DNA of 64,000 nucleotides, taken from NCBI GenBank assembly GCA_002720095.2, contig PBGP02000006.1, positions 102,257 to 166,256 on the forward strand. Direction: 5' to 3'. Positions 10,728 to 14,070 of the stretch are shown here, piece by piece. The translations under genes and the position numbers were made by a program. The notes below the pieces were generated by a model. That model was given only the letters and a program-made list of their open reading frames with translations. It did no database searches and was not told the DNA's origin. Numbering within the stretch: the first letter of the stretch is position 1; the number at the start of each line of letters is the position of its first letter. The DNA comes from Methanobacteriota archaeon. GTDB taxonomy: Archaea > Thermoplasmatota > Poseidoniia > Poseidoniales > Poseidoniaceae.

Positions 10728-12632
10728 TTGAGACTTAGTTTTCATGAGGTAAAAAATAAAATAGCAAAATTAGTTCCCAAGGATATAGATTATTCAGTAG
10801 ATTTAGAGGCAGCAACTGTTGCAATAATTACATCTCAACCTGACAGATTTGGAAGTGGGAGTGGGCTAACTGGGGAAATAGCCAAAGAGATAAAGCGTAG
10901 AGTAGTTATTAGACCAGATAAAAAAATAATGATGTCTGAGGAAGAGTCTGTTGGTCACATAAAATCTATTATTCCAGAAGATGCAGGAGTAAATGACATT
11001 TATTTTGATCCTTGTTTTTCTGAAGTAATACTTACCTGTGATGACCCAGGAACAGCAGTTGGAAGGAGAGGAGAAAATATTAACAAGCTAAGAGATAAGA
11101 TAGGTTGGATTGTTAAAGTTGAAAGAACGCCTTCTCTGAGAAGTAAGACTGTGGTTGATATTAGAGGTTTTAGAAAAACTCTAGCCGAGGAAAGAAGAAA
11201 ATTACTCAGAGATTTTGGAAGAAATATTTTCAGGCCTAAACTGTCGGGGTCATCTTGGGCAAGATTAACTGCCTTAGGTTCTTACAGAGAAGTTGGAAGA
11301 GCTTGTCATTTAATTACGACTAATGAATCTAGAGTGATGATTGATGTTGGAGCTAATATAGCTGATACAGCGAACCATTTACCTTTTTTCAATGCGCCTG
11401 AAGCATTGCCATTGGAAAAAATTGATGCAGTAGTATTGACTCATGCTCACCTAGATCATGCAGGAATGTTACCCTTATTGTTCAAATATGGATACAAAGG
11501 ACCAGTTTATTGCACACCTCCTACGAGAGATATGATGCTAATTTTGCAATCAGATTATCTGAAAGTCGCGGGGATGGAGGGGAAATCTCCTCCATACGAG
11601 ATGGAACACGTTCGAGAAGCCATGAAACATGTGATAGACGTAAATTGGAAAGAAACTACTGATATTACCCCAGATATAAAAATGACTATGACCAACTCTG
11701 GGCATATTATCGGATCTTCTGCTTGCCATTTTCACATTGGAGAAGGTAAACATAATCTAGTATTTTCAGGTGATCAAAAATATGAAAAAAGCTGGCTTTT
11801 TGACGCAGCAAACTCTAAATTCCCTCGTTGTGAAACTCTAGTACTCGAGTCAACGTATGGTGCTCAAGGAGATTTCCAGCCATCTCGTTTAGAAGCTACT
11901 TCTGAATTGCAGGAAATGATTAAAAGAACAATTGGAAGGAATGGAAAAATGATACTTCCTGTTTTTGCTGTCGGTAGGAGTCAAGAAGTTATGATTGCAA
12001 TAGATGAATTATTTAGAAATGGAGAAATGGAACCTTGCACTGTATACTTAGATGGTATGATACAAGAAGCAACGGCAATACATGCATCACATCCGGAGTA
12101 TTTAACAAGAGATTTAAGGAATGCTATACTTAAAAATGATGAAAACAATCCCTTTAGCGCTCCTTGGTTTAGAACTGTACAAGGAAGAGAAATGAGAGAA
12201 TCAATATTATTAGACCCCACTCCGTGTATAGTTTTAGCTACTAGCGGTATGTTAACAGGGGGGCCAGTAATGACATATTTCAGACATTGGTCAGCTAATG
12301 AGAGAAATGCACTGTGTTTCGTAGGTTATCAAGCAGAAGGATCAATTGGAAGGAGATTGCAAAAAGGTTTCAGTGACATTCAGATGTTTTATGAAGGTGA
12401 AACGATAAACTTAGAAGTTAATTGTGAGTATATAACTATTGATGGATTTAGTGGGCATTCTGATAGAAAACAACTACTTGATTTTGTAGATCAATTAAAC
12501 CCTAAACCTCACGCTATTGTGTGTCATCATGGTGATTATAGAAAGTGTAGTGAATTAGGTAGAGCATTGAGAGAGAAATATAATGTCAGGTCATATTCAC
12601 CAAAAAATCTAGAGACAATTAGATTGTTTTAA
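10728..12632 (+). CDS. aCPSF1: KH-domain beta-CASP metallo-beta-lactamase ribonuclease (archaeal transcription-termination/RNA-processing factor)
   Basis: 634 aa. N-terminal KH-like region. H-x-H-x-D-H motif (THAHLDHAG). Beta-CASP C-terminal region ending ...DGFSGHSD...VCHHGD. Sits next to psmB, a pairing I recall from other Euryarchaeota. TTG start. Confidence 0.9.
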   Translation: MRLSFHEVKNKIAKLVPKDIDYSVDLEAATVAIITSQPDRFGSGSGLTGEIAKEIKRRVVIRPDKKIMMSEEESVGHIKSIIPEDAGVNDIYFDPCFSEVILTCDDPGTAVGRRGENINKLRDKIGWIVKVERTPSLRSKTVVDIRGFRKTLAEERRKLLRDFGRNIFRPKLSGSSWARLTALGSYREVGRACHLITTNESRVMIDVGANIADTANHLPFFNAPEALPLEKIDAVVLTHAHLDHAGMLPLLFKYGYKGPVYCTPPTRDMMLILQSDYLKVAGMEGKSPPYEMEHVREAMKHVIDVNWKETTDITPDIKMTMTNSGHIIGSSACHFHIGEGKHNLVFSGDQKYEKSWLFDAANSKFPRCETLVLESTYGAQGDFQPSRLEATSELQEMIKRTIGRNGKMILPVFAVGRSQEVMIAIDELFRNGEMEPCTVYLDGMIQEATAIHASHPEYLTRDLRNAILKNDENNPFSAPWFRTVQGREMRESILLDPTPCIVLATSGMLTGGPVMTYFRHWSANERNALCFVGYQAEGSIGRRLQKGFSDIQMFYEGETINLEVNCEYITIDGFSGHSDRKQLLDFVDQLNPKPHAIVCHHGDYRKCSELGRALREKYNVRSYSPKNLETIRLF

Positions 12633-12959
12633 TTATAGTGGTAATTCCCAACTATCTTCAAATTTTTCTGGAATATCTTGATTATCATTTTTCAGAGAAT
12701 TTCCAATGCTACTAGAATGATTTTCTTCGTTATCTGAATGGTTTGAATTTTTAACATCATTCCTTTTTGCAATTACTGAAAAGCAAGAAATAATTATTAT
12801 GAGAGATAATACAATCGCTAGAATCCAATATGTCTCACTGGGAGTATTAGAAAATTTGTAAGCGGAAATTAAGATAATTAACAGTTGTGTAATAATTAAG
12901 AAGTAATTTAGTCGATTATTACTCAACCCCATTGAACTACGGAAGGTGGGTGGATTCAT
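12633..12959 (-). CDS. small hypothetical membrane protein
   Basis: 108 aa with two hydrophobic helices and an acidic/Ser-Asn-rich tail. Fills an otherwise empty gap. Confidence 0.4.
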   Translation of the reverse strand: MNPPTFRSSMGLSNNRLNYFLIITQLLIILISAYKFSNTPSETYWILAIVLSLIIIISCFSVIAKRNDVKNSNHSDNEENHSSSIGNSLKNDNQDIPEKFEDSWELPL

Positions 12960-12983: not shown

Positions 12984-13622
12984 ATGGCGGGACCTTTGTC
13001 ATCAGATTGTCCTGGCTGGCTAATGACGGCAGTTGCTCCTTGGGGTGAGAATCCAGAAGACGCTTACGATCAGGGTTTAGTGGAACTAGGATTAGGAGAC
13101 GCGCGATTAATCCGTGTTGAAGGTGCCATGCTGCCTATGGGTTTTCTACCCGTAGCGCCAGAACCATTACCAATGGGTAGTTTAGTTGAATGCCATCTTG
13201 CAATTGGACATGCTTATGATGGTGGAATTGCATCAGCAGGAGTGGCTTGGGCACATTGTAAAACACCAGAGGGTGATGAATGCTCTATAACAGCTTCAAT
13301 TTCTACGGAAATGGATTCAATAACAACTGACGAATTACTTAGAAAAAATTTTAGAAATAAATTAGCCAGTAGAGATTTAGAAGTGATTGAATTCGATATT
13401 GCTGTAGATGAGGTAACTGCGGCACAGGGCCATTTTGGTGTTGCATTAGCAGCATTAATTCTTCCTGAAACTATGTCATTTCAAGAATCCAATCAGTTGG
13501 GTAGAGTAAGAACTGGAATTACTAGGGATGCCACAGATTTTAGAAATCCATTACAGAAAAAATCTAAATCTCCTACTCCAAGAGGGCCTAGAAGAGATGA
13601 TGATATAAATTTCAATTTTTGA
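12984..13622 (+). CDS. PdaD-like (pyruvoyl-dependent arginine decarboxylase family) protein lacking the Ser-Ser processing site, with a basic C-terminal tail
   Basis: GENPEDAYDQGLVELGLGDARLIRVEGAMLP...PLPMGSLV and ...IAVDEVTAAQGHFGVALAALIL parallel the PdaD pattern GE.P..AFD.AL..AGIG..NLIRISSI.P...LP.GALV ... AAAALW recalled from methanogen PdaD. The stretch looks more GC-rich than its neighbours. Confidence 0.55.
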   Translation: MAGPLSSDCPGWLMTAVAPWGENPEDAYDQGLVELGLGDARLIRVEGAMLPMGFLPVAPEPLPMGSLVECHLAIGHAYDGGIASAGVAWAHCKTPEGDECSITASISTEMDSITTDELLRKNFRNKLASRDLEVIEFDIAVDEVTAAQGHFGVALAALILPETMSFQESNQLGRVRTGITRDATDFRNPLQKKSKSPTPRGPRRDDDINFNF

Positions 13623-13629
13623 GATTATC

Positions 13630-14070
13630 ATGTCTGAAGAATTACCAGCATATTGTTTAGTTAAGTGTAATATTTGTGAATATTATTTCGGAAAACATAA
13701 AAATTCAAAAATTAGCTGTCCTCGATGTCGGACTGGTAACAAAAATTTAGATATTGTAGATAGGACAGAAAATGCTGAAGAACTGCATAGACTTGTATCA
13801 ATAAATAACCTCCCGAGCCAATTGAGAAAAGAATTTGAGCAAAAGAATATAGATAAATTAGAACAAAATACAAACTTTGATTTAAAAAATATGCTGCCAA
13901 ATATTTTAGTTGAGTCTGTAAATGAAGAAGGATTCGTCACAGTTCAAAGCCTTAATGGAAAACTAAGAGCGAGAAGAATAAAATTTGATGCATTAAAATT
14001 GGCCCATAATGCTGAGTTTGAAGGTCTTTTAATGCGAGTCTCCGAGGGCAAATGGAGATTAATAGGCTGA
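13630..14070 (+). CDS. hypothetical zinc-ribbon protein
   Basis: N-terminal C-x2-C...C-x2-C (CNICEYYFGKHKNSKISCPRCRTG). Starts 8 nt after the PdaD-like gene, so likely co-transcribed. Confidence 0.45.
   Translation: MSEELPAYCLVKCNICEYYFGKHKNSKISCPRCRTGNKNLDIVDRTENAEELHRLVSINNLPSQLRKEFEQKNIDKLEQNTNFDLKNMLPNILVESVNEEGFVTVQSLNGKLRARRIKFDALKLAHNAEFEGLLMRVSEGKWRLIG

Follow-up and report, generated by a model that had tools for sequence, protein, structure and literature searches.

The locus described here raises the question of what a pyruvoyl enzyme does once the residues that make its cofactor have been replaced. The window (the whole stretch of DNA analysed, 64,000 nucleotides (nt); GenBank assembly GCA_002720095.2, contig PBGP02000006.1, positions 102,257 to 166,256 of the forward strand) comes from a Marine Group II (MGII; Poseidoniales) archaeon with a genome of 1.8 Mb in 23 contigs, 82% complete. 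It carries a gene for a 212-amino acid (aa) protein resembling the pyruvoyl-dependent arginine decarboxylase PdaD (PvlArgDC; PF01862, TIGR00286; MJ0316; PDB 1MT1, 1N2M and 2QQD; EC 4.1.1.19). An earlier sequence-only reading had proposed either a pseudo-enzyme or a PdaD fold recruited to another function. That proposal is borne out by the loss of the catalytic residues, by purifying selection and by conservation across the Poseidoniales. The protein represents a branch of the PdaD fold that has no pyruvoyl group and is both conserved within, and specific to, the order. The best explanation overall, to which a probability of roughly 60% was assigned, is a repurposed PdaD-fold pseudoenzyme, probably a binding or regulatory protein. 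That it is not an arginine decarboxylase and is nevertheless functional is very probable; whether it binds or regulates without catalysis, or is instead a new enzyme, was judged an even call. The gene and its folded part are as follows.

12984-13622, + strand: PdaD-like open reading frame (ORF), a Ser-less protein of the PvlArgDC fold, 212 aa (Pfam, phmmer, hhalign, Foldseek, VIA)
13008-13478, + strand: folded PdaD-fold core, residues 9-165, acidic (isoelectric point (pI) 4.25; AlphaFold pLDDT, VIA alignment)

The PF01862 profile matched the protein with an E value of 1.4e-5 and 25.5 bits, above the curated cut-off of 22.7, and the alignment ran over residues 25-160 of the protein and positions 18-160 of the 161-position profile. 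In the Pfam and NCBIfam profile searches PvlArgDC was the only known motif or family to be matched. The sole phmmer matches among PDB sequences were M. jannaschii PdaD (1n2m, 2qqd; E about 1e-4). When a 44-sequence alignment of the family was compared with 18 canonical PdaDs using hhalign, a probability of 99% and an E value of 2e-18 were obtained over 140 columns; identity between the protein and the canonical PdaDs aligned here was 19-28%. Motifs held in common with PdaD are F/Y-D in helix 1, a G-x-G loop, LPxG and a hydrophobic C-terminal strand. Names on the family's matches included Candidatus Poseidoniales and Poseidoniaceae, and in the ESM Atlas only PvlArgDC-labelled clusters were found. 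Longer, fused forms were looked for and none was found, which is weak evidence; the few family entries of 290-340 aa look like mis-called starts.

An AlphaFold2 model of the protein had mean values of the predicted local distance difference test (pLDDT) above 90 for every 10-residue block from residue 11 to residue 160. The best Foldseek matches of this model were the uncleaved PdaD proenzymes 2qqd and 1n2m (E 5e-13, root-mean-square deviation (rmsd) 2.2 Å), with target-normalised template modelling (TM) scores of 0.83-0.88. VIA-align against 48,161 representative chains gave M. jannaschii PdaD at Z 20.6 and rmsd 3.0 over 156 residues, model residues 2-163 being aligned to PdaD residues 7-165; the next, unrelated entries had Z below 7, pyruvoyl histidine decarboxylase among them at 6.2. 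By Foldseek, VIA and the core pLDDT above 90, the model has the four-layer alpha-beta-beta-alpha fold of PdaD, which is shared across the entire core. The homology to PdaD that had been read from the sequence thus stands, on a PF01862 score over the cut-off, the hhalign probability and the VIA Z score. The 212-aa protein is a true PdaD homologue in fold and superfamily and lies outside the active enzymes: against the NCBIfam equivalog TIGR00286, which represents active PdaD, it scored 21 bits versus a cut-off of 106.95.

The residues that set it apart from PdaD are at three places in the gene.

13104-13106, + strand: Arg41 codon, in place of M. jannaschii Asn47; Arg in each member covering the column
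13119-13127, + strand: Glu46-Gly47-Ala48, the old Ser52-Ser53 cleavage site; [QEKH]-G-A in the family
13296-13298, + strand: Ser105 codon, where PdaD has its catalytic Glu109; family members carry T, K or S

In the 18-sequence alignment of canonical PdaDs the invariant positions N36, S41-S42 and E99 correspond to M. jannaschii Asn47, Ser52-Ser53 and Glu109. Asn47 reportedly has a part in self-processing. Ser-Ser is the serinolysis site, at which the chain is split into beta and alpha chains and the second Ser is turned into the pyruvoyl group; Glu109 takes part in cleavage and is also the catalytic acid (for the Ser and Glu roles, PMC2720952). Unlike PdaD, the Poseidoniales protein has all four residues substituted and a cleavage loop longer by one residue. 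The length of the loop makes the register there ambiguous. In the phmmer register Ser52-Ser53 pairs with Glu46-Gly47 (codons 13119-13124), which is the Glu-Gly replacement that the sequence-only reading had pointed out; in the hhalign and MAFFT register Gly47 is a one-residue insertion and Ser53 pairs with Ala48. The equivalent of Ser52 is thus Glu46 (Q, E, K or H in the family), and that of Ser53 is Gly47 or Ala48. The conclusion is unaffected. Among 120 aligned members, 119 cover the site, and in either register none has Ser, Thr or Cys at positions 45-50, which read V/A/M, Q/E/K/H, G, A, M/F and L; Gly47 is present in 118 and Ala48 in all 119. The loss goes beyond the dipeptide noted before, since Asn47 and Glu109, two other canonical invariants, are replaced as well. 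Judged by these substitutions, the gene product should be incapable of self-cleavage, of pyruvoyl formation and of arginine decarboxylation and, unlike PdaD, would have to remain an uncleaved single chain.

Two other sites were considered and set aside. Cleavage at G65-S66 was discarded because S66 is Ala or Thr in some members, and an N-terminal-nucleophile-like use of Cys9 because that residue is Ser in some members; both lie outside the processing loop. Positions 46 and 105 are variable and co-vary with position 44 in charge-compensating sets (R/K44-E46-S/T105, E44-Q/H46-K105 and E44-K46-T105). The pattern suggests contact among residues 44, 46 and 105, like that between Ser53 and Glu109 of PdaD, and a structural plug in place of a catalytic site.

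The family was delimited using sequence searches. A word-indexed protein search returned 278 clusters at E <=1e-3, with 55-100% identity among the 120 listed. An exhaustive search of 1.84 billion representatives returned only the Ser-less family, then a gap, then canonical PdaDs at 22-32% identity, with Ser-Ser in each one aligned. Among 44 diverse members 59 columns are invariant; the N-terminal 54 residues are the most conserved part, with 21 invariant positions among residues 15-54. The ratio of nonsynonymous to synonymous substitution (dN/dS) was 0.005-0.05 in nine of ten pairs of loci from different genomes (dS 0.5-2), synonymous changes being saturated in the remaining pair. Identity between genera is about 60%, versus about 70% for the essential FttA. 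When canonical sequences were included in a tree, the family formed a clade with 100/100 support, on a stem of 4.7 substitutions per site and with internal branches of 0.05-0.25. The long stem and short internal branches represent a burst of change followed by freezing under strong purifying selection. The tree of the family recovered genus-level clades and did not resolve the split between the two Poseidoniales families sampled (f1 and f2, below). In one marine metatranscriptome run (X1) a 152-nt contig identical to 13041-13192 was found, together with one contig from a relative; in a second run (X2) there was no match. The contig is a weak hint of expression, amounting to presence in an RNA library only.

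Distribution was determined in 151 genomes of the class: f1 (n=65) is the window's own family, probably Poseidoniaceae (MGIIa); f2 (n=40) is probably Thalassarchaeaceae (MGIIb); f3/f4 (n=45) are the sister Marine Group III (MGIII) lineages. The divergent form was searched for with the protein itself as query, and the canonical form with a six-frame PF01862 search, which misses even the window's gene at E values up to 10 and detects canonical PdaDs only. The divergent gene was found in 64/65 f1 genomes, 11/40 f2 genomes and 0/45 f3/f4 genomes. Canonical PF01862 matches (E about 1e-54) were present in 44 of the 45 f3/f4 genomes; no canonical PdaD was found in the window's own genome (82% complete) or in the 105 sampled f1/f2 genomes, the few PF01862 matches in f2 being the divergent gene itself. 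The gene occurs as one copy per genome, with its frame intact wherever found. Two genomes gave two pieces, and these are not second copies: one is a discontinuous match in one frame and the other a gene split over two contigs. Positional orthology with MGIII pdaD was rejected, as the MGIII gene lies in another neighbourhood and groups with M. jannaschii-type sequences.

Within f2, the genera with the gene have larger genomes (1.6-2.2 Mb) and those without it mostly streamlined ones (1.3-1.6 Mb); the exception is one 1.8-Mb genome of a carrier genus that gave no match. In one MGIIb genome with a complete contig the locus consists of PsmB, FttA, a small membrane ORF and a Zn-ribbon gene, and the PdaD-like gene is cleanly absent, leaving 4 nt between the two flanking start codons; an MGIIb genome with the gene has the identical block with the PdaD-like gene in place. 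Clean absence from streamlined MGIIb genomes is easier to reconcile with an accessory or regulatory role than with a core function.

Loss of arginine decarboxylation raises the matter of agmatine supply. The window's own genome encodes TiaS, which requires agmatine, so agmatine is needed. The sequence-only reading had named another polyamine route as a point to be checked, and an enzyme derived from SpeH/SpeD, SpeDA, is present in this genome. On contig C4 (locus L001:538-2733, outside the window) an agmatinase gene (TIGR01230, SpeB) is directly followed by a 431-aa fusion ORF with an N-terminal AdoMet_dc domain, in which the E-S-H processing motif is intact, and a C-terminal deoxyhypusine-synthase (DHS)/SpeY-like domain. 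Spermidine synthase was not found in this genome, and the only pyridoxal phosphate-dependent decarboxylase found in it looks like LysA. Of the 105 f1/f2 genomes sampled, nearly all gave highly similar matches to the SpeD-like/DHS-like pair, the exceptions being a few incomplete f2 assemblies in which matches were weak or partial; in MGIII there were weak matches only. The two domains are fused without a stop in the window's own genus and in genera g4, g7 and g8, and in most of the remaining Poseidoniales they are encoded by separate adjoining genes. Channelling of agmatine could be an effect of such a natural fusion of SpeDA with SpeY.

In vitro, L-arginine was decarboxylated by purified Poseidoniales SpeDA proteins encoded in clusters with speB and speY, and the same SpeD homologues did not complement for S-adenosylmethionine decarboxylase (AdoMetDC) activity (Li et al. 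2023; PMC10407285). SpeY joins two agmatines, and SpeB then yields homospermidine (PMC13625781). The SpeDA-SpeY-SpeB module (PMC10407285, PMC13625781) thus supplies agmatine from arginine, which in other archaea is the job of PdaD; SpeDA is encoded on a different contig from the PdaD-like protein and is unrelated to it in fold, which is that of AdoMetDC/SpeD. In the Poseidoniales the arginine decarboxylase job has been displaced by this non-homologous pyruvoyl enzyme, and PdaD chemistry could therefore be lost.

The protein also differs from PdaD in a C-terminal extension of about 47 aa, disordered and basic, with a conserved motif at its end.

13479-13619, + strand: disordered basic C-terminal tail, residues 166-212, pI 10.8; conserved G173 and R176
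13605-13619, + strand: C-terminal short motif, here I-N-F-N-F; consensus [THI]-D-F-[STN]-[LFI]-COOH

The basic tail had been seen in the sequence-only reading, and it is disordered in the model (pLDDT about 50-60), with G173 and R176 invariant. In the terminal motif Phe is found at -3 in 110/114 members and Asp at -4 in 95/114, and the motif is conserved in f2 also. Core and tail differ in charge, the core being very acidic (pI 4.25 vs 10.8; family medians 4.35 and 11.2). The higher GC content noted earlier was likewise found: the gene has 0.413, compared with 0.339 over the window and 0.353 genome-wide. The excess is in codon positions 1 and 2 (0.51), and at third positions (GC3) the gene has 0.221 and its neighbours 0.22-0.25. 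High GC follows from the amino-acid composition of the protein, in which Gly, Ala, Pro, Asp and Glu are abundant; foreign origin was rejected, as GC3 equals that of the neighbours.

From these observations a course of events may be proposed. The old PdaD gene would have been retained after SpeDA took over, gone through a burst of change and then been frozen under purifying selection. Its product would remain an uncleaved, proenzyme-like chain in which the former catalytic centre is filled by the co-varying charge network at positions 44, 46 and 105. The acidic core might have kept the ability to bind a basic peptide or some cationic ligand, such as agmatine, arginine or a polyamine, and the basic, disordered tail with its C-terminal D-F-x-L motif may dock to a partner. 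The highly conserved N-terminal segment corresponds to the beta chain of PdaD, in which the guanidinium-binding Asp35 and the carbonyls of Gly44 and Val46 are said to contact agmatine; PdaD is a homotrimer whose ligand sites lie between protomers. Asp29 and Gly38, the equivalents of PdaD Asp35 and Gly44, are conserved in every member covering them. A more specific form of the proposal, put forward tentatively and held to be less likely than not, is that after the SpeDA takeover at the root of the Poseidoniales the PdaD fold became a non-catalytic sensor of arginine, agmatine or polyamines. It would have kept the guanidinium-binding half in an uncleaved trimer and would signal through the tail and D-F-x-L to control polyamine or arginine metabolism or a translation-related modification (agmatidine, hypusine). 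If true, such a sensor would be the first example of a pyruvoyl enzyme turned ligand sensor.

Several points weigh against a repurposed, non-catalytic protein of this kind. The conservation of Asp29 could have a purely structural cause. The co-variation of positions 44, 46 and 105 was drawn from related sequences and may partly mirror phylogeny. The family does not stand beside MGIII PdaD in the tree, and descent from a resident pdaD is not supported there. Residues E69, H71, D142, E143 and H150 are buried or invariant polar residues; among them E69 and H71, both invariant, stand in a central strand where canonical PdaDs have hydrophobic residues and, being new, could form a new catalytic or metal site.

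The gene order in the window is proteasome beta, FttA/aCPSF1, a small hydrophobic ORF on the opposite strand, the PdaD-like gene, a Zn-ribbon ORF and tRNA-Pro. The nearest neighbours are listed below.

10728-12632, + strand: FttA/aCPSF1, conserved upstream synteny anchor (context only)
12633-12959, - strand: small hydrophobic, probably membrane protein, divergent upstream neighbour, with an acidic C-terminal motif
13630-14070, + strand: downstream neighbour, a 146-aa protein made up of a C4 zinc ribbon, a helical linker and a winged helix
14106-14179, + strand: tRNA-Pro(TGG), downstream end of the conserved block (context only)

The Zn-ribbon ORF lies directly downstream, as had been noted, and starts 7 nt past the stop codon (8 nt in the earlier count). 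At 20/20 loci it is on the same strand, 0-37 nt downstream of the PdaD-like gene or overlapping it. Its products form a fast-evolving family of about 140-150 aa in which four Cys are invariant and an N-x-P-x-x-L-R helix is conserved; the C-terminal part is a winged helix. No Pfam family scored over threshold, and 7/19 members gave weak matches to DUF5817; Foldseek returned nothing at E <=0.001, and only winged-helix domains at E about 0.01-0.1. The gene is present in 64/65 f1 and 39/40 f2 genomes and is essentially not in MGIII. Since it is kept in genomes without the PdaD-like gene, the adjacency is one of conserved gene order and not proof of joint function, and a functional pairing of the two genes is doubtful.

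Four other explanations of the PdaD-like protein were weighed against that of a repurposed binding or regulatory pseudoenzyme. The main rival is recruitment of the fold to a new pyruvoyl-independent enzyme using E69, C70, H71, D142, E143 and H150, perhaps with a metal, and maybe acting on a guanidino or polyamine substrate. The invariance of E69 and H71 in place of hydrophobics, and of D142, E143 and H150, would be explained by it, and conservation as extreme as that seen in dN/dS is typical of enzymes. However, positions 46 and 105, which once faced the catalytic centre, are variable; C70, C92, C100 and H150 occur in canonical relatives also and are not novel; nothing besides PvlArgDC is matched by the protein in the profile searches; and the gene is dispensable in streamlined genomes. 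A new enzyme is accordingly regarded as unlikely. Less likely still is a sensor-effector pair, with the dead enzyme as a sensor of arginine or agmatine and the winged-helix Zn-ribbon protein as the partner that would bind DNA or RNA. The close, same-strand spacing at all 20 loci and the four invariant Cys and winged helix of the downstream protein would suit such a pair, but the Zn-ribbon gene is in 39/40 f2 genomes and the PdaD-like gene in 11/40. Where the latter is missing the Zn-ribbon gene sits at the same locus right after the small membrane ORF, and the Zn-ribbon protein therefore works without the PdaD-like protein; it also evolves much faster (22-33% identity between genera, as against about 60%).

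Continued arginine decarboxylation, with a cofactor made from a non-canonical residue or by another mechanism, is what the names in JGI and UniRef imply, where members are labelled pyruvoyl-dependent arginine decarboxylase or simply arginine decarboxylase; the retention of Asp29 and of the Gly38 loop is in keeping with those labels. It is nonetheless very improbable, given the lack of Ser, Thr and Cys at positions 45-50 in all 119 members, the loss of Asn47 and Glu109, and the occurrence in nearly all 105 sampled genomes of SpeDA, a proven arginine decarboxylase of another fold. Moreover, 29/40 f2 genomes do without the gene, though agmatine is presumably needed order-wide (TiaS was checked in the window's own genome). 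Least credible of all is a decaying pdaD relic, a pseudogene with no function. The loss of catalytic residues and the absence of the gene from many MGIIb genomes could be read in that sense, but the frame is intact and single-copy in all genomes where the gene was found, 59 columns are invariant, the AlphaFold model is confident, and the identical metatranscriptome contig adds a weak hint of expression; with dN/dS of 0.005-0.05, the relic is effectively refuted by the selection analysis.

Dead members of pyruvoyl-enzyme families are known from other organisms. The AdoMetDC "prozyme" of trypanosomatids is a dead pyruvoyl-enzyme paralogue, and Victivallis SpeD-SpeDC fusions (PMC10407285) contain a degraded SpeDC domain. 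In both, a pyruvoyl-decarboxylase fold without its processing serine or active-site residues is kept under selection, as is the case here. The prozyme and the Victivallis dead copies act with an active homologous partner, in a heterodimer or a fusion, whereas the Poseidoniales protein has no active PdaD partner in the sampled genomes, neither its own genome (82% complete) nor the 105 f1/f2 genomes having a canonical PF01862 match. Variants of Chlamydia trachomatis AaxB (PMC2720952) belong to the PdaD family and neither self-cleave nor decarboxylate arginine, in which the Poseidoniales protein is predicted to be alike. The chlamydial lesions, however, are recent single nonsense or missense changes on the way to pseudogenes (PMC2720952), while the Poseidoniales family is old and order-wide, has all catalytic residues substituted and is under purifying selection.

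Literature searches turned up no publication dealing with PdaD homologues that lack the serines, or with PdaD in MGII, and conserved dead members of the PdaD fold were not described in the literature searched. MGII is among the most abundant archaeal groups of the surface ocean. The decarboxylase labels in JGI and UniRef can misassign agmatine synthesis in reconstructions of its metabolism, the real route being SpeDA-SpeY-SpeB. With regard to evolution, the family would be a clear natural example of non-orthologous displacement after which the old gene was repurposed and not lost; its stem branch is long, its sequence thereafter nearly frozen, and its distribution complementary to that of canonical PdaD in the sister order. 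Identification of the ligand or partner would reveal what a pyruvoyl-enzyme scaffold can do without its cofactor.

Other features of the neighbourhood were recorded. The small ORF, probably a two-helix membrane protein, starts just 24 nt from the start of the PdaD-like gene and is conserved between FttA and the PdaD-like or Zn-ribbon gene; its C-terminal consensus is ...PDP.D.G[FL][DE][VI]P[LI][LM], here ...EDSWELPL. In some genomes of genus g4 (loci L004-L008) the place of FttA as upstream neighbour is taken by a protein, some 200 aa long and with two pairs of CxxC, that is probably ZPR1-like; the locus has been rearranged in this genus, and the PdaD-like and Zn-ribbon pair stayed together. 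In an MGIII genome (G049, locus L025:2317-3534) a repetitive, partly N/X-masked ORF with tandem 'GIWDMGY' units adjoins the canonical pdaD.

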